This document shows, one piece after another, positions 11,935 through 37,565 of a stretch of DNA of 64,000 nucleotides; positions within the stretch are counted from its first letter, which is position 1; each line of letters starts with the position of its first letter. The stretch comes from Moniliella sp. 'wahieum' (Eukaryota). Below the pieces are notes generated by a model, which did no database searches, was not told the DNA's origin, and saw only the letters and a list, made by a program, of their open reading frames with translations. The DNA is taken from contig RSEE01000004.1 of NCBI GenBank assembly GCA_003971905.1, forward strand, positions 558,001 to 622,000. Reading direction: 5' to 3'. The position numbers and the translations under genes were made by a program.

Positions 11935-12021
11935 GCCTCGCTATTTCAATCGGTAGAATTTGAGACTCTTACTTGAAAGAGGTCCATCTCACGGTTGTGG
12001 GTTCGAGTCCCACGTGGGGCG
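11935..12021 (+). tRNA. tRNA-Lys(CUU) with 14-nt intron
   Basis: Cloverleaf GCCTCGC...GTGGGGCG; anticodon stem TGAGA/TCTCA; anticodon CTT; GTTCGAGTC B-box; TTTTT terminator at 12025. Confidence 0.93.
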
Positions 12022-16074: not shown

Positions 16075-16257
16075 GTCAACCTGGTGACCGGTGATCGCTG
16101 ACTAGCAAAGTGTGATTACGGGGTCTGATTCCGACACGACAGACGAGGGGATAACGATGGCTGTCACTTGCATGTCACTGCCGCTATCACGGGGGCAGGC
16201 TGGGTGGTGCCTCTTCGTGATACCATGAAGTCTTGCATAGCTTGTTGCGGGGTATAA

Positions 16258-16335
16258 GCTCCGATCTTCCAGTGGTTAGGAAGTGGGATTTTGAATTAAC
16301 TTCCCGAAACCTGGGTTCGAATCCCAGTTGGAGCT
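16258..16335 (+). tRNA. tRNA-Gln(UUG) with 6-nt intron
   Basis: GCTCCGA/TTGGAGC acceptor; TGGGA/TCCCG anticodon stem; anticodon TTG; GGTTCGAATCC; poly-T terminator. Confidence 0.9.
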
Positions 16336-16993
16336 TTTTGCTGGCAGTTTTTACTTGCAAGGATGCTGGTTGCGACGACACAGCAGAGGTACTCAGAGCA
16401 ACCCTTTCGCCTTGGTTTTTGCTAAAACGCTGGTTCCGGCAGGGCCTTCAGCTGAAGGGTCAGGCTGTTCGTTCAAGCTCGCTGTTATTGGAAGTGGGCA
16501 GCGTGCAGTTTTTGGCAACTGCCGCGCCATCCCACCGGGCCAGCTATTCCAGCCTATATTATCCCAGAGAGACAGCGCACGCACGCCATATTCCGAGTGT
16601 ATGCATACTGCGTGCTGGCACACGAACCGTTCCCGAGCAGATTTCTACTCAATGAACGCTTGCTGCCGGGAACTATGGTTCCAATATCTGAACTTGTCGC
16701 GCCCAGAGGATGCGCCTGCACCAGTACCAAAGAGAGCAGAATAGAATCAGATGAATGCAGATCTGGACGGCATAGCAAGCGCCTGAAGCCCTCACCTCAG
16801 GCGGGCGAGGCGTCACCTCGACAGTGGAGGAGGATATCAAAGGCAACAAAAAGGACTCAGGAAGACGAATTCCATCAGGGACGGGCCACACACCAGAGCC
16901 ACAGGCTACAGAACGTAGACACCAGGACACGAATGTGAGCCCCAAAGAGGTGAGGGGCCAAGTTGGGAAGAGACAAAGAGGATTACCGAGGCA

Positions 16994-23913: not shown

Positions 23914-26608
23914 ATGGCCTTCTTCCAATCTCCCACTCCATCAGCTCCACTGGGTGCCGCCCCTCTGGCTGCCAGCAGCCTAGCCCAGGCACCCAAGACA
24001 ATCGTCTTATCGGCGATGGACTACGGTCTCCGGTCGCCCTCGGCCTGCTCAAGTCAGGCCACCGCGTCCACTTCGTTGCGCCGTCTCCACCCTCCTTCGC
24101 TGCTTGACGGCATCCTCTTCCTTGGCTCATCTTTCCGCTCGTCGGGTTCGGTGTGGCGTTGGACCTTGCCACCCAGCGGGCCGTTGGCGGGATGGCGCTC
24201 GACGCGGCCTATTGCCCAGTTGTCTCCGAGCTACCTTGGCATGGGGGGCAGCGCTGACTTGGTATCAATGCTTCTGGCATTGCGCTGCCCGGTGCCGATC
24301 TCCTCGCATCGCGCATCAACCAAAACCATTGCGGAAGAAACGCTTTGCCCAATCCGTCGCGGGCCTGAGCCAGATCCAGCAACAGCAAGCTTCGAACCCT
24401 TGTGGCGTCGCAGCAGACTGCCGCCGCATCAGAATCCAGCCTGGTTTCCTCAGTCTCCTCCGAGTTGCCGCCCAGTGTAACAAGTATGCATCCAATTCGC
24501 AACTCTCAGCCCAAGCCGCCAGTGAGGCGGCCTACAAGGCCACCCAGGCTGCCGATGTTGCCACCGTTGCGGCTCAGACAGCTGCGAACAAGTCCTTCAT
24601 CGCCTCGCAAGCGGCCGAATCGGCCGTTGCCAACTCGGCCATCACCTCACAAGCGAGCAACATTGCTGCCGCCAACTTGGTATGTCTTTTTTGGATTTGC
24701 TCTTCTCCTTTTCTTCCACCTTACTGACCTGTTCATCGTTCCTTCATCATATACACCCAAAGTTTGCCTACGACAGCGGATTGCTACGGTTGGTTCCACT
24801 TCTGCCGCTCAGGCGGCTGGCCTGTATGGATACAACTCGATCGCTGGTGCTAATGCCGCAACGGCGGCTGATCTGAGCAGTTATGGATCTTTTGCCGCGG
24901 CACAACAAGCTCAAGCGGTTTCCGCTGCTGGTCGCGGCGGCTATAATGGATCCAACGCTGCTCTCCAGACGGCTCAGTCCGCTGCCTTGGCCGGCTATGG
25001 TTCTGTCGCGGCTGCGGAGGCTGCTCAGATCCAGGCAGCTCAGGCGGCTACCGCATCCGGTCTATCCGGCTACGGCAGCACCGTTTCCGGGTTCAACGGG
25101 TACGGATCTGCCGCCGCTACGCAGGCCGCTGCTGTTAATGCTGTTGCTGCTGAGACGGCTGCTGCCCAGACGGTGGCTGCTCAGACGGCTGCTGCTCAGA
25201 ACTACGCCGCCCAGAACTATGCTGCAGAACTACGCTGCCCAACAGAATTACGCCGCCCGACCGCTGCGGCTCAAACATACGCTGCCCAGACCGCTGCTGC
25301 CCAGACCGCTGCGGCTCAGACATACGCTGCTGAGGCGGCTGCTGCCCAGGCTGTTGCTCAGACTTACGCTGCTGAGAAGGCTGCTGCGCAGACGGCTGCT
25401 GCCCAGACTTACGCTGCCCAGACTTACGCTGCCCAGACTTACGCTGCTCAAACGGCTGCTGCTCAACGGCTGCGGCCCAGACGGAAGCGGCTCAGAATTA
25501 CGCTGCCCAACAGACGGCTGCTGCCGGTCTGGCTGGCTACAGGTCCGCTTCAGCTCGAGGCGCGACCGCGGCCGATTTGGCCAGCTACGGCTCAACTGGT
25601 GCTCTACAAGCTGCTACTAGTCTTTCCTCGGCGGACGTGGCGGCGGCACTTTCGGAGACGGTCGCGTCGCGCCACACGCAATCAGTCCTGGACAATGCGT
25701 TGGTGCAAGCTGGAGTTACGGGGGGTGTATGTCGTCCTTGGCCGCGGCCAAGACTTCGGCCCTAACCCAAGCGGCCATTTCGAATGCTGTCCAGTGGGCC
25801 GCAGCCACCCAACAGGCGGAAGAGCAGCAGGCGGCGCTCAAGGCGGCTGCGTATGCTGCGGTGGCTCAGTCGTCTATTGCTTCTTCGGTCGCCAGTGCCA
25901 ATCAGCAGGCAGCGGTGGCGCGCGCGCTTGAGGCACAGTCGTCGGGTGTAGCGAAGCATGCGGTGGAGAGCGCCATCCAGCAAGCGGCCGCTTCCACCTA
26001 CGCCCGTTCCGCTGTGGCGCAGGCGTACCAGCAGCATGCCATTGCCCAGCAGGTATCCCAGCAGCGTGCTATCGCCCAGCAGGTATCCCAGCAGCGTGCC
26101 GTGGCCCAGCAGGCGGCTGCTTGGAACGCCGCAGCCCAGACCCAAGAGGTGGCGGCGCAGGCGCAGCAGCGCGTTGGCGGCGGCGGCGCAGTCGAGCGTG
26201 ACCCAAGCGATTGTGGCCAACGCGGTGGCGCAGTATGGCTCGTCGGTGGTCAACCCGGCGGCCGTGGCAGCAGTGCTGCAGGGTGCGTTCAACTCTTCCT
26301 CGTCGGGATCGTTTAGCCCGGCGGCGAGCGCAGTCCAGGCGCAGATCCAGGCCCAACAAGCGCAAGCCCAGGCTGTCCGCTCCGCGGCGGTCCTGGAGCA
26401 CCTAACTGGCCCACGCAAGCCCTTGCTCGAGACGACGCAGGCACTGGCGGGGATCAACTATGGCATTACTTCCCCGCCCTCGGTTGCGGGGCTGGTGGCC
26501 GGGCTGCCGTCCAACTATGCGATGACACCGGCGACACGCCTGTTCTCGCTCAACGCTTCACCGGCGGCAGCTCTTTCTGCGGCCCGTGTTGGCATGGCGC
26601 GACTTTAA
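23914..26608 (+). CDS. Ala/Gln/Ser-rich low-complexity repeat protein of unknown function (frameshifted)
   Basis: TATA box, ATG 23914, intron 24680-24776 (GTATGT...CTGAC...CAG). Pentapeptide repeats AQTYA/AQTAA/AQNYA and scattered GYGS/SYGS motifs. Stop at 26608. Confidence 0.75.
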
Positions 26609-27043: not shown

Positions 27044-27142
27044 GGGGCTCAGCGGGAATTGAACCCACGACCACCTCTATTCGAACTGAGTCCAGCTCGG
27101 GAGAGTCCCGAAAGAGGCATGATACCACTACACCATGAGCCC
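27044..27142 (-). tRNA. tRNA-Pro(CGG) with 27-nt intron
   Basis: GGGCTCA/TGAGCCC acceptor; CCTCT/AGAGG anticodon stem; anticodon CGG; GGTTCAATTCC; poly-T terminator. Confidence 0.9.
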
Positions 27143-27228: not shown

Positions 27229-27313
27229 CGCCCCACGTGGGACTCGAACCCACAACCGTGAGATGGACCTCTGTTATAAGAGTCTCAAATTCTACCGATT
27301 GAAATAGCGAGGC
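27229..27313 (-). tRNA. tRNA-Lys(CUU) with 12-nt intron
   Basis: Mature sequence identical to the copy at 11935; the intron differs. TTTTTT terminator. Confidence 0.93.
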
Positions 27314-29255
27314 TGTTTTTGCAAGATTGGGGCCGTAGAAACTGAGTTAAGTGACAATAGCAAGAGTCAAATCATACCCTACCTTCTCTACTACCCTGGC
27401 TTCTCTCTTTACACTTAAGGGGAAGCAGCAAAAACACTGCACCTGTACACATCGGATGCGAATTGTAAGTTAGTTGCGCTTGGGATCCTCCTACGTCCAA
27501 CCCCTTCCTAAGGAGGGCCGATATGGTGTGGTTGCTGTTTGTGTATAATAGTGGTGTTGTGTTTTTTAATTGGTACAGACAGAGAAGAGAACTTTCACAA
27601 AGCATTCTTCAGTGTGTGGAGGCCAAAAGAGAAGAAGCAAAATTGAACTCCATCAGCACTGGCTGTGTTGAACAGCAGAAGTGTTCTTCGTACTAACGTA
27701 GCCCACACTGCTAATATAGTGCGACTTGGAGCACTCGCGATCGCTATTGATCAGTTGCACATTATATTGAAGCAGCTTTCGGACAAGGCTTGGTGAAGGC
27801 AAAGCAGTCTAGCCACAAAAGGCTTCAAACAATGTCTGAAGGGAAGGAGACAGGAGAGAGAGGAGGAGATGGAGTTATCCACTCGTGCACTGCCCAGTGG
27901 GTATGGGAACGGATGTCGGCGGGAGTCCCCAGAGGGTGTCCTGATCGAACGGATTGAATCTCTTGGCGATTCCCCTGGTTCCCTAAACGGGGTCGCCGCC
28001 AAAAAGCAACACAAGCCGGGGATGATCGAGCTCTGTCGATGATACTATGGTTACTACAGTTTCCCTTGTGGTCCCCTAAACGGTGGGGGGTTGGCGCGAA
28101 CGAGCAACACAAGTCGGATGAGCGGTTCGGTTTACAGAGGCGCAGCGTTTCTTTGTTCCAGCCATAAGCTCTGGAAATGACATGGTCACAGCGTAGTAGA
28201 GATATGCAGTTGAATTGTGGCTATGAGACTAGCAACCGTCGTGACACGCACTACATGCAACAGGGTGGTGCTAGGGTTCACCTGCACTATCTCCAATGGA
28301 TCGGTGATGCTCGCTGGTTCGGGTGATTCGCCCCTTGCGTGGTCTGTGCGCCACCCCTTTTTGTCTGTTCCGACTTGCTTGCTTGGCTCTTGTCTTCTTC
28401 CCTTCAGCTTGCTTGAAGGACTTGTGGCTGACTGCCCTGCCTTCTTGCACGTCTTGAAGGTGCGCCTCTGCTTTCCCTGTTCTTGTGTTGTCCTCCGCAA
28501 TGCAGCTTGCTTGAACAAGGACTTGTGGCTGACTGCCCTGCCTTTTCTTTTGCACGTCTTGAAAAGCTCATCTCTTGTGCTGCCCATAGCGTTTCCCAGC
28601 TGCAGTCTAGCAGGTTATGTCGCCCTTCTCTTCTGCCTTTGCGCATTCTGCGCACCCGGTTTACTCGCCTGACGACATTGTGGAAGCGTATGTTTGTCGT
28701 GGCGAGTTTGACCCCAACTCCCAAGTCGGGTTGACTTCTAGCAAGACCACAGCGAAGTGGCAGGCTTTTCGAGTCCAGTACATGGTTGGTGCTTGGGCTG
28801 GACTGAACACTGTCCTGTGGGACGTTGACGTGGACGTCGCTGCCGAGTTCATCCACGACGTCATTCCTACCCTTCGCCGCTGGGAGATCCCGATGAAGGG
28901 CATAGACCTTCCGGCCCCTGGTTCTGCAGTGGCAGACAAGGACTCTACTGTGGCTGATATCATTACCAAATACAGCAAGGACCATGGCGGCGAAGACATC
29001 TTGCTCACACCGACTTCTATGTTGCCTATGTCTTTTATAAGAAGTCTCATTGCTTCTCCACCTTTGAGGACTTGCATGCGGCACTCATGCTCCATGTCGG
29101 TGAAGTGAAACGTGCTTGGAGACAGTACTGGATCAATCGGTCTTCCGAAGAAAGTCGCAAGCGTGTCGCTCTGAAGCGTCGTATCATGCGTGACATGCTC
29201 ATCGACCCAGCGCGCCTGCCTCCTACTGCCGAATATGAGGATGAACTTCAGGTAC

Positions 29256-30645
29256 TGTTGGCCTAGGGAGCCGGACGGGCAGAAGGATGAGGAGAAGGTG
29301 ATGGATTGGAGCCAGAGTTGGGTCTGGGTACAGAGGCATCTATAGGAGGCTGGACTAGGCACAGGGACAGTGAGTCACACAGGAGAGAGTGCAGGGCACA
29401 GGGACAGTGACACGCAGGGACGTCAGCGTGGAAGCCGATGGAACCGAGGCGAACCTGGTCTACCGACTGGGAGCCAGAGGATCACAGTCAACACCCCCGC
29501 TGGCCAGGGAACCCGGAGACATCGGTTGTGGATGAGCTCCTGCCAGTGGATGTAGAGAGGGAGGACTTGAGTGGCAACCGGGACGAATGGCCTGGAGTTG
29601 TGCATGGCCACACGACTGGCCTACACCCCCGCTGTCCAGGATGACACCTGAACGAGCCGAGCGCTTGTGGTTGGTGTATTGTGCGACCGCCAGATGCTTG
29701 TAGAAGTCTTAGAAGTAAAAGTAGTAGGGGTTGCGCCCCGAAGCGATTTGGTGGGCAAAAGTAAAAAGCACCAGTTATAGGTGTAGTGAAAGAAAATTGG
29801 AAACTTGGAGTAAATGCGGTCCAAGGTCGTTTGGCATCAAAATTGGATGCGTTTGGTAGTTGTTTGGTTCCGCATGCCTGGTGCCAGTGGGGTCCATTGG
29901 GCATGGGAAATGAACGGGCGCTATGCGTCAACCGTCTTGATCTGTTTGGGTTCTCTTTGTTGTTGAAAAAGAGGAGTGGAAGAAGTTGGGTGACCACCCC
30001 CCCCATCCTTTCCCCAGGTGCCCCGGATGAATTGGCAATCCGGGGCGTGTAGCCGTGGGTGGGGCACTTGATGAGCAGCCACCCCGCTTTCTGCGATTCG
30101 CCTGCGCCGTTTTGTCGTTGGAGGAATTTCGTCTCGTTGACGATACCCGACACGTTTTGTTCCGTCGTGTGTTGTCCCTAAAAATCATTGCCCCATCTGT
30201 GGGGGACGAGTGTGCCGATTGTGGCGGTAGTATGCCGATTGTGGCGGTAGTATGCCGATTGTGGCGGTAAGGTGCCGATTGTGGCGGTGGTGTTGTTGGG
30301 CGGGAGGACGGGTGTGTCTTGTGGGCTTGGCGGCTTAGCTTGGGCTTGTAGGCTTGGGGTGGGCTTGCTTGAAGAGCGCTCCCCTTCCGGGGGGATCAGA
30401 TTGTAGCTCTGTTGGCCTAGGGCCGGACGGGCAGAAGGATGAGGAGAAGGTGATGGATTGGAGCCAGAGTTGGGTCTGGGTACAGAGGCATCTATATAGG
30501 AGGCTGGACTAGGCACAGGGACAGTGAGTCACACAGGAGAGAGTGCAGGGCACAGGGACAGTGACCGCAGGGACGTCAGCGTGGAAGCCGATGGAACCGA
30601 GGCGAACCTGGTCTACCGACTGGAGCCAGAGGATCACAGTCAACA
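29256..30645 (-). mobile_element. Miniature (TRIM-like) LTR element, copy 1 (LTRs 29256-29493 and 30410-30645)
   Basis: LTRs of about 237 bp bounded by TGTTG...CAACA; G-tract PPT next to 29493 on the minus strand; TATATA in the LTR; left flank GGTAC. Confidence 0.9.
30211..30288. repeat. 21-bp tandem repeat (TGCCGATTGTGGCGGTAGTA-type, about 4 copies) inside the miniature element; repeated at about 31594-31669
   Basis: Read directly from the sequence. Confidence 0.9.
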
Positions 30646-30646
30646 T

Positions 30647-32016
30647 TGTTGGCCTAGGAGCCGGACGGGCAGAAGGATGAGGAGAAGGTGATGGATTGGA
30701 GCCAGAGTTGGGTCTGGGTACAGAGGCATCTATATAGGAGGCTGGACTAGGCACAGGGACAGTGAGTCACAAGGAGAGTGCAGGGCACAGGGACAGTGAC
30801 ACGCAGGACGTCAGCGTGGAAGCCGATGGAACCGAGGCGAACCTGGTCTACCGACTGGGAGCCAGAGGATCACAGTCAACACCCCCCTGGCCAGGGAACC
30901 CGGAGACATCGGTTGTGGGATGAGCTCCTGCCAGTGGATGTAGAGAGGGAGGACTTGAGTGGCAACCGGGACGAATGGCCTGGAGTTGTGCATGGCCACA
31001 CGACTGGCCTACACCCCGCTGTCCAGGATGACACCTGAACGAGCCGAGCGCTTGTGGTTGGTGTATTGTGCGACCGCCAGATGCTTGTAGAAGTCTTAGA
31101 AGTAAAAGTAGTAGGGGTTGCGCCCCGAAGCGATTTGGTGGGCAAAAGTAAAAAGCACCAGTTATAGGTGTATGAAAGAAAAATTGGAAACTTGGAGTAA
31201 TGCGGTCCAGGTCGTTTGGCATCAAAATTGGATGCTTTGGTAGTTGTTTGGTTCCGCATGCCTGGTGCCAGTGGGGTCCATTGGGCATGGGAAATGAACG
31301 GGCGCTATGCGTCAACCGTCTTGATCTGTTTGGGTTCTCTTTGTTGTTGAAAAGAGGAGTGGAAGAAGTTGGGTGACCACCCCCCCCCATCCTTTCCCCA
31401 GGTGCCCCGGATGAATTGGCAATCCGGGGCGTGTAGCCGTGGGTGGGGCACTTGATGAGCAGCCACCCCCGCTTTCTGCGATTCGCCTGCGCCGTTTTGT
31501 CGTTGGAGGAATTTCGTCTCGTTGACGATACCCGACACGTTTTGTTCGTCGTGTGTTGTCCCTAAAAATCATTGCCCATCTGTGGGGCGAGTGTGCCGAT
31601 TGTGGCGGTAGTATGCCGATTGTGGCGGTAGTATGCCGATTGTGGCGGTAAGGTGCCGATTGGGGCGGTGTGTTGTTGGGCGGGAGGACGGGTGGTCTTG
31701 TGGCTTGGCGGCTTAGCTTGGGTTGTAGCTGGGGGTGGGCTTGCTTGAAGACGCTCCCCTTCCGGGGGATCAGATTGTAGCTCTGTTGGCCTAGGGAGCC
31801 GGACGGGCAGAAGGATGAGGAGAAGGTGATGGATTGGAGCCAGAGTGGGTCTGGGTACAGAGGCATCTATATAGGGCTGGACTAGGCCAGGGACAGTGAG
31901 TCACACAGGAAGAGTGCAGGGCACAGGGACAGTGACACGCAGGGACGTCAGCGTGGAAGCCGATGAACCGAGGCGAACCTGGTCTACCGACTGGAGCCAG
32001 AGGATCACAGTCAACA
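30647..32016 (-). mobile_element. Miniature (TRIM-like) LTR element, copy 2 (LTRs 30647-30881 and 31784-32016)
   Basis: Near-identical to copy 1 apart from indels; right flank GGTAC at 32017-32021. Confidence 0.9.
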
Positions 32017-33987
32017 GGTACCGGCAACTCAGATCGATACTGAGTCAGACCAGCGTATGGACCTGTTGGGCACCCCGAAACGTTCTGTCCGACTGACAGT
32101 GATAGGGGATGTTACAACCCTGGCTCTTGCTCATGACCCGTCGGCTGCTTGCCGTCGTGGCCGTCCCTTCTGGGGGCGTATCAGCGAGCAGGCCCCGTCT
32201 ACTCGCACTGACTAGCGAGGAGCAGCCTAAGTGGGTGGATGCGCCGCTCTAGTCCAGGGACACATGAATTTCGATGTTATGACTCTGCCGAAGCGTATGA
32301 CGCGTGCTTTTGCTTCCTCGCCTCTGACACCCCTGGTGCATGGTCCCGAGCAAAAAGATCCGTTGGCTGTTCTTCGCGCTGGCTGCAGGGCATCCGTACT
32401 CGTTTGGCCACCATTTATCACGACTTTGCTTCGATCTTGGCCGGCACAATGGAGGTGCCGCCGGGGGTGCACTCTCAGATCGTTGGGCAACTAATGACGC
32501 TGGTGTCGCCTGCCCTCGCGGCCTACATTTCGCGCCTAGCCACCACAAACGTCTCCCGGGATTCTTTACTCGGTTCCGGACTTCTTGTCGTGCTTGTTCG
32601 CGGAAGTGCGCCTTTCTACACCAAGCGTCTCTGAACTACAGCTGTCGGTGCGCCAGATGGAATGGGATCCCAATGCAGAACCGGCTTCTACGGCCCTGAC
32701 GCGCTGGCTCGATTCAATCCAGGTTTTGACCCTCTTGGGGTACTCCACTTATTGGGACCCTGCACGTGATGTCCAGTTTGGAGGCCCTTTTCCGGCGTGG
32801 TGATTCGTATCGGCCGCTGATTTTCGCAGGGCTACCTCCCGGACAGCGTGTGACCGTGGCACATGTCAATTCTGTCTTGGGGGACTTGCAGTCGTTGGCC
32901 CGGGCCAACTTCGTCATGGAGTATAACCGGATTGCGTCCATCTCGGTGCCTACGGTTGAATCTTTGGCTGTTGATTCTCTACCCCACCCGTTAATTCGGG
33001 GACCACGGGACTGCTGGGAACGTAGACATGTCTCTTGCATCGCAGCTAGGAGCGATGGGGCTCGCGGCTGTCTGCTGGAATTTCCGCCAGCCTGGCATAT
33101 CGCTGCCAACTGCCCGGCGCCGCGTCAGGACAACCGCATTTCTAACCGTGGTACGTCAGGATGGAATCGCACCCTCCCTGGGCCAGGATGGAACGCGAAT
33201 CCAACCGTGCGCCCCCCGCAGCAGCATGCTGTTGCGCGTGTGCTTCAAGCCTTGGCGCACAGTTTGACGATAATGGACCTGTCCGTACCAGAGGAGGATG
33301 GCCTGCCTGCCGCGGGGGTTCGATGATATCGAATAGGGGTGGCGCGGGGTGAGGCGCTCATTATGCTCGCAGAGGACTTGTTGAGCGCATTGTCTACGAC
33401 TCGCCCAGGACGCGCCCCCCTTATTTCCCCCCTTTTGTCTTCTTCCCTTCAGCTTGCTTGAATGACTTGTGGCTGACTGCCCGCCTTCTTGCACGTCTTG
33501 AAGCTCATTTCTTGTGCTGCCATAGCGTTTCCCAGCTGCAGTCTAGCACTACAGACTTCTGTTGCCACACTATACGTTAGCATCACTATCGACATCATCG
33601 ATGCATCAGTATCGGTCTTTAAGCTTCAAGGTTCACGGGTTCCGGTTATACCAGGTTATACTACCGGGCGGGACTCCAGGTATCGATCGTAACCGCGGAG
33701 AAGGGGGGAAGCTTCCTTTTGGTGTCGACCCATGGTGGGGTGGCTCGTGCATTTTTGCCCCAAAGGTTCTTTTGGACTTTCCCTCTTTTCACTGGCCACA
33801 AGCTCCAAAAGGAACTCCGATGTTCTCGCTGCTATTTGCCTCGTTTCGCAGCTATGGGGTCGGTGGCGAATGGGCGCTTGAGTACTCACTGAGTCCCTAT
33901 ATACATGTCTTTGGTATATCACACCACCACCACTATATATAGTGCTGGAGTGCTGCATCTCAGGTGGTCCTGGAGGACTGCCAGGCG

Positions 33988-37458: not shown

Positions 37459-37565
37459 TGAAGGCAGTGGGATTCGAACCCACGAATGTCGCAGTTCTAT
37501 CCACTCTTAAGCGGAAGCGCTTAATGACTTGAATACGATGCCATAGACCACTAGGCTATGCCTCC
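37459..37565 (-). tRNA. tRNA with CAA (Leu) anticodon, 33-nt intron and short 5-nt variable loop
   Basis: GGAGGCA/TGCCTTC-A acceptor; D arm GCCTAGTGGTCTATGGC; anticodon stem TCGTA/TGCGA; loop TTCAAG; variable region CATTC; GTGGGTTCGAATCCCAC; poly-T terminator. Confidence 0.85.

Follow-up and report, generated by a model that had tools for sequence, protein, structure and literature searches.

A candidate tRNA-Tyr anticodon-loop primer site in a non-autonomous, Copia-style LTR element of a fungal genome

Immediately past each 5' LTR of a short retroelement, found here in two copies, lies a 13-base sequence that is complementary to the anticodon arm of spliced tRNA-Tyr(GUA). Judged from its sequence, the element is best filed as a non-autonomous, Copia-style LTR retrotransposon with a tRNA-Tyr anticodon-loop primer site, and we consider it probable that tRNA-Tyr anticodon-loop priming is how this 1.39-kb Copia-style element starts its reverse transcription. 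Throughout, the window denotes the whole stretch of DNA that was analysed (64 kb), and positions are counted from its first base.

Positions 29256-32016 of the window hold a head-to-tail pair of one ~1.39-kb LTR unit, with the element read on the minus strand. On the plus strand the order of the whole unit is GGTAC, LTR_A, an internal region of ~915 nt, LTR_B, a single T, LTR_C, an internal region of ~901 nt, LTR_D and GGTAC. The individual features are as follows.

29251..29255, no strand: target-site duplication GGTAC, left copy (read directly; the same 5 bases stand at 32017-32021)
29256..29493, minus strand: LTR_A, 3' LTR of the downstream copy (repeat comparison and direct reading)
29494..29500, minus strand: polypurine tract of the downstream copy (GCGGGGG on the minus strand, abutting the 3' LTR; direct reading)
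29494..30409, minus strand: internal region of the downstream copy, about 915 nt, without detected coding capacity
30397..30409, minus strand: putative primer binding site of the downstream copy (GAGCTACAATCTG on the minus strand, complement of tRNA-Tyr positions 28-40)
30410..30645, minus strand: LTR_B, 5' LTR of the downstream copy
30646..30646, no strand: one extra base, T on the plus strand, between LTR_B and LTR_C (LTR-LTR junction)
30647..30881, minus strand: LTR_C, 3' LTR of the upstream copy
30882..30888, minus strand: polypurine tract of the upstream copy (AGGGGGG on the minus strand, abutting the 3' LTR)
30882..31783, minus strand: internal region of the upstream copy, about 901 nt
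31771..31783, minus strand: putative primer binding site of the upstream copy, the same 13-mer as in the downstream copy
31784..32016, minus strand: LTR_D, 5' LTR of the upstream copy
32017..32021, no strand: target-site duplication GGTAC, right copy (direct reading)

The LTRs are ~236 bp long and read TGTTGG...GTCAACA on the plus strand, giving the TG...CA type of tip (TGTTG...CAACA) seen in Copia elements. Tips of this kind together with a 5-bp duplication have been described as Copia-like (PMC4139406, 10.1101/2025.04.25.647736), and the 5-bp target duplication found here, GGTAC at 29251-29255 and 32017-32021, brackets the dimer, not the single copies. Pairwise comparison of the four LTRs gave 0-3 substitutions and 6-13 gap columns, while the internal regions of the two copies are 2 substitutions and 24 gap columns apart; because substitutions are few and the differences mostly gaps, the two copies are essentially identical. 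The differences between them look like indel noise from assembly. Since nearly all differences in 29256-32016 are single-base indels, the assembly seems to carry uncorrected long-read indel errors; the lone C that breaks the purine run GCGGGGG of the downstream copy is possibly assembly noise too. Open reading frames are fragmented across the window.

A Pfam search with six minus-strand ORFs that belong to the element or overlap it, four of them wholly inside it, returned no family at E<=1, and two element ORF translations inspected by eye look non-coding. No autonomous Copia partner was found in the 64-kb window. Because the element is non-autonomous and has no gag-pol, its assignment to Copia rests on the LTR tips, the duplication and the type of primer binding site. 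A 20-bp unit (GTATGCCGATTGTGGCGGTA-like) is repeated about four times in tandem at 30200-30290 and again at 31581-31670; these repeats sit in the leader of the element, which on the minus strand places them ~110-200 nt past the primer site.

On the plus strand, CAGATTGTAGCTC occurs at 30397-30409 and 31771-31783, and these are the sole matches in the window on both strands with up to one mismatch. Shuffled sequences gave an expectation of 0.04 matches, compared with the 2 seen, the two sites not being independent because both belong to copies of one repeat. Each of them adjoins an LTR that starts TGTTGG on the plus strand, at 30410 and 31784. In minus-strand order, the end of the LTR (...GGCCAACA) is followed by GAGCTACAATCTGATCCCC..., so that the site begins at the first base past the LTR and the sequence directly after the 5' LTR is GAGCTACAATCTG. 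A sequence-only reading had described this 13-mer as lying directly after the 5' LTR at 30397 and 31771-31783, and both description and coordinates proved right on direct reading and on searching the window; its end coordinate of 30411 corresponds to the 13-mer plus the first two LTR bases (TG). When the last two LTR bases are added (CA on the minus strand, TG on the plus strand), the sequence forms a 4-bp stem, CAGA/TCTG, around a 7-nt loop, TTGTAGC, which in the tRNA sense contains U33, the anticodon GUA and G37. In neither copy do the first 40 nt past the 5' LTR (minus strand) contain TGG, in agreement with the earlier remark that there is no TGG for 3'-CCA priming.

Contigs of JGI metagenomes were scanned with a pattern in which CAGATTGTAG is followed after 5-35 bases by CTCTG and then, ten bases on, by a T-loop consensus. 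This yielded 12 loci. ARAGORN calls an intron-containing tRNA-Tyr(gta) in five of them (L002, L003, L004, L007 and L011); L012 has the same exons as these five under a different ARAGORN label, and the remaining 6 of the 12, which contain no tRNA, are chance matches. In the six tRNA-Tyr genes the 5' exon ends with CAGATTGTAG and the 3' exon begins with CTCTG, and the genes have a C1-G72 pair at the start and the usual D- and T-arms. The introns of eukaryotic tRNAs sit between positions 37 and 38 (PMC10275265). Spliced at 37/38, all six arms equal the complement of the window site at 13 of 13 positions and continue over two bases of the LTR (three in L011). The proposal that the site is the complement of tRNA-Tyr(GUA) positions 28-40, and that it needs the spliced tRNA, is thereby borne out. 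No match extends beyond the 13 nt on the 5' side, where position 27 and the D-stem side are mismatched in the six genes. ARAGORN itself sets the intron one base later (38/39) in the inspected loci on JACCD contigs, its four Tyr calls there having the intron at position 39; that placement would give A, not C, at position 38, and only the L011 model gives C38.

Because the pattern fixed the matching bases, the scan shows that such tRNAs exist, not their frequency or a fungal origin. With six natural tRNA-Tyr(GTA) genes sharing its exact anticodon arm after 37/38 splicing, the CAGATTGTAGCTC site stands, by sequence comparison, above chance. A scan with an 18-mer spanning the LTR end and the primer site gave one match in viral contigs and six in bacterial contigs (Psychrobacter, Flavobacterium and others), and these seven are taken as chance. 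An ARAGORN tRNA search of the 64 kb did not find a tRNA-Tyr gene in the window. As a separate observation, L002, L003, L004, L007 and L012 of the metagenome loci have a tRNA-Asn(GTT) gene on the same strand only 2-4 nt away from the tRNA-Tyr gene, with introns in both; the two form a tight pair in a eukaryote lineage.

The sequence-only reading had put forward half-tRNA priming by a spliced tRNA-Tyr as undescribed. This claim to novelty is wrong: the mechanism is already in print, Kojima 2024 having reported for Copia elements and TRIMs of fungi that spliced tRNA-Tyr primes through its anticodon loop (PMC10886601). According to that paper, tRNA-Tyr genes have an intron after the anticodon, so that the mature tRNA must prime; Copia-50_PHord uses tRNA-Tyr; the use of tRNA-Tyr-GTA arose several times; and the non-autonomous Helenus forms are presumed to be mobilised by Copia elements (PMC10886601). 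Ten internal sequences in its Data S1 start with gatttacagtc (PMC10886601). Compared by eye with GAGCTACAATCTG, sites of this type agree in 9 of the first 12 bases, with differences opposite 38, 37 and 32, and they share its register, the first base pairing with C40. The copia/Ty5-type register that had been proposed for the site held; it is also that of the printed Pucciniales Tyr-type sites, with base 1 opposite position 40. The exact 13-mer does not occur in the Kojima 2024 supplement (PMC10886601). Since the site here is GAGCTACAATCTG and not gatttacagtc..., it implies a tRNA-Tyr with T32, G37 and C38; the tRNA-Tyr sites of rust fungi stand opposite A37, whereas the present one stands opposite G37.

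Like the present element, Helenus and Copia-50_PHord of the Pucciniales are fungal, and Helenus internal sequences, all primer types included, often end in a G-run at the 3' LTR. The tRNA-Tyr-type Helenus sequences in Data S1 part 1, however, are mostly without a terminal G-run, unlike the element here. By our own count of part 1 of the Kojima supplement, the primer binding site is at base 1 in 24 of 24 sequences and a terminal run of at least five G is present in 19 of 24. Membership in Helenus was rejected, as ARAGORN found no tRNA in 29256-32016 and Rfam none at E<=10; the Rfam search of 29200-32100 at that threshold gave sub-threshold, unrelated families only, with tRNA absent. In contrast to those of Helenus, the LTRs here gave no tRNA-like match. 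Size also speaks against Helenus and the TRIMs, the unit being ~1.39 kb where a TRIM is under about 1 kb and the longest Helenus is 1263 bp (PMC10886601). Two further differences from the systems of Kojima are that the window has a G+C content of 57% and that an autonomous partner was not seen in it.

Outside this group, the copia primer is the 5' half of tRNA-iMet (PMC10275265) and that of Ty5 the tRNA-iMet anticodon stem-loop (10.1101/2025.04.25.647736), and the ICTV sets Hemivirus apart by the trait of internal-tRNA priming (PMC8515867). In copia, Ty5 and Hemivirus, as in the element here, the primer binding site directly adjoins the 5' LTR and is complementary to an inner segment of the tRNA, not to its 3' end; copia and Ty5 use tRNA-iMet, whereas here the match is to tRNA-Tyr. 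We take the register of the copia primer site to be the same as that of the present one. Internal regions of non-initiator tRNAs are also matched by the primer binding sites of Tca2 from Candida albicans, with tRNA-Arg(UCU) (PMC4139406), and of the fungal Copia element FunCo1, with tRNA-Lys (PMC5445492). Tca2 and FunCo1 resemble the present case in this respect, but they involve other tRNA species and are autonomous. The FunCo1 motif ATTAAGAGTCT gave two one-mismatch matches only in the window, one of them within a tRNA-Lys gene. Tf1, like the element here, has no TGG or 3'-CCA site; its primer binding site pairs with the start of its own RNA, which is not the case here. For Tf1 the first RNA bases must pair with the primer binding site (PMC7175516). 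Self-priming of the Tf1 type, the counter-case that the sequence-only reading had named, was rejected, as no stretch of at least 6 nt within the 29 nt past the LTR has a complement in the LTR.

Another reading supposes that the loop of the tRNA-Tyr in the host itself is a different one, such as the rust-fungus type. The mechanism would then be the same, but the site would be mismatched and the family inactive or foreign. Fungal tRNA-Tyr loops do vary, because the Pucciniales Tyr-type sites differ opposite 32, 37 and 38, and this divergence lends the idea some plausibility. We nevertheless regard such a relic or import as unlikely: indels account for almost all of the difference between the four LTRs (0-3 substitutions against 6-13 gap columns), the 13-mer is identical in the two copies, and natural tRNA-Tyr genes with exactly this loop exist. 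The near-identical LTRs and the shared 13-mer suggest a recent insertion by a working system.

The strand on which the element is read bears on the identity of the primer site. In the minus reading the LTR ends with CAACA, the primer binding site starts at the next base, and a purine run, AGGGGGG or GCGGGGG, abuts the 3' LTR in both copies as a polypurine tract. This layout, with the primer binding site at base 1 and a terminal G-run, matches the fungal internal sequences in part 1 of the Kojima supplement, and the minus orientation would follow from the logic of primer binding site and polypurine tract only. On the plus strand the nearest TGG is 6-7 nt past the LTR, within a 12-bp palindrome, and the purine run is 15 nt from the other LTR. 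The palindrome is perfect (CCCTGGCCAGGG) and stands beside the polypurine tract, in the regions 29501-29516 and 30888-30903.

If the element were instead to be read on the plus strand, it could use conventional 3'-CCA priming at TGGCCAGGGAACCCGG, 6-7 nt past the LTR, which would leave the Tyr-like 13-mer as a coincidence and would imply a host tRNA with a 3' end complementary to TGGCCAGGGAACC. Several features are compatible with this: TGG follows both LTR_A and LTR_C at 6-7 nt, a G-run lies near the other LTR, and the 16-mer TGGCCAGGGAACCCGG agrees at 12 of 16 positions with the complement of the metagenome tRNA-Tyr 3' end plus CCA, a score reached by 3 of the 2,932 TGG-led 16-mers in the window, two of the three being the element's own copies. 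The implied tRNA would, however, have a G discriminator and be mismatched on the T-loop side. Moreover, the TGG belongs to the perfect palindrome CCCTGGCCAGGG, the purine run is 15 nt from the 3' LTR and not abutting it, and all 24 fungal internal sequences in the Kojima supplement have the primer binding site at base 1, with no spacer (PMC10886601). An exact 15-base identity to real tRNA-Tyr arms, right at the edge of the LTR, would also have to be left to chance. We therefore think a plus-strand element with a 3'-CCA primer quite improbable.

There may, lastly, be no tRNA priming at all, the CAGA-loop-TCTG hairpin over the LTR end being a GalEa-like structural start site or a product of chance; the hairpin takes in the last two LTR bases, is present in the minimum-free-energy fold, and has a precedent in GalEa Copia elements without a primer binding site, whose hairpin site includes the last LTR base (PMC5445492), but the fold is no better than that of shuffled sequences (z = -0.68, with 45 of 200 shuffles doing as well), the complement of an anticodon arm should form a hairpin in any case, and the loop has U33, GUA and G37 in the register of a tRNA and is identical to real tRNA-Tyr arms, which makes this account very unlikely indeed. 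The conserved hairpin site of GalEa was itself rejected as a candidate, as the sequence after the LTR is GAGCTACAATCTG and neither of the GalEa motifs, CTGATCAGT or CTAATTAGT, which in GalEa pair with a further conserved block, occurs there.

Under the preferred reading, tRNA-Tyr anticodon-loop priming, the 13 bases after each 5' LTR would serve as the minus-strand primer binding site. They would pair with positions 28-40 of the mature, spliced tRNA-Tyr(GUA), covering the 5' side of the anticodon stem, the entire loop and two bases of the 3' side. By analogy with copia, Ty5 and the Copia and Helenus elements of rust fungi, a tRNA fragment ending at about position 40 would then prime minus-strand strong-stop DNA, and the reverse transcriptase would be supplied by an autonomous Copia partner outside the window. 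We infer from this scheme that the host tRNA-Tyr has a matching arm, that it is cleaved near position 40 and that priming takes place.

G37 is widely N1-methylated in eukaryotic tRNAs (PMC10275265). Such methylation would loosen the pairing 4 nt away from the end of the primer and counts against priming. In budding yeast, nuclear Trm5 N1-methylates G37 only after cytoplasmic splicing and re-import of the tRNA (PMC10275265). If the host were like yeast, the element might pair well with, and copy back from, only freshly spliced, unmethylated tRNA-Tyr, which would tie its replication to a transient step in tRNA maturation. Separately, the LTR-T-LTR junction within one duplication would point to end-joined cDNA integrated as a dimeric unit. 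We offer this combination as speculation with little probability.

The arrangement of the two copies, a dimer with an LTR-T-LTR junction inside one 5-bp duplication, is an odder feature than the primer site. The copies are fused LTR to LTR via a single T (30645-30647), one pair of GGTAC surrounds both, and neither copy has a target duplication of its own. The dimer looks like end-joined cDNA (a 2-LTR junction) integrated as a unit, or else an assembly artefact.

The element is itself inserted in a repeat-bounded unit of ~28387-33548, the similar ends of which, 28387-28612 and 33432-33548, both finish with ...CAGTCTAGCA. Directly past the left repeat of this unit is GGTTATG, overlapping the ATG of an ATG-led ORF. 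The unit also encodes a zinc-knuckle-like sequence, CWNFRQPG/HIAANC, that is split by a frameshift near 33060-33110, and a Pfam search with two of its ORFs gave no match. These features make it likely that the surrounding unit is an LTR element with gag only and a primer site of the tRNA-iMet type, the latter as the sequence-only reading had assumed.

The window is fungal. Proteins encoded elsewhere in it include one of the DUF3818/PX type, a MAS20 (Tom20) receptor and a SOG2 protein of the RAM pathway; a search for homologues of a neighbouring PX-domain protein gave three matches, at 79%, 70% and 23% identity. A long open frame on the plus strand, 24369-25931, contains at 25115-25520 a GCTGCTGCCCAGACG-like repeat with a period of 15 bp, and its product is presumably an Ala/Gln-rich repetitive protein. 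The tRNA genes of the window were found with ARAGORN.

11935-12021, 16257-16336, 27044-27142, 27229-27313, 37459-37565: five tRNA genes (Lys-CTT x2, Gln-TTG, Ser-CGA, Leu-CAA)

ARAGORN models an intron beside the anticodon in all five, including tRNA-Lys(CTT), and the two Lys-CTT genes share 93% identity across 98 bp, flanks included.

With anticodon-loop priming by spliced tRNA-Tyr already published for fungal Copia-type elements, the mechanistic weight of the present case is small. It would extend this type of priming to a fungus of different base composition and to another tRNA-Tyr loop (T32, G37, C38). For the annotation of genomes, it means that LTR tools which seek only 3'-CCA primer sites will miss such elements. 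Looking forward, the G37 detail and the LTR-LTR dimer are small leads on how a primer is chosen and how cDNA ends are joined.
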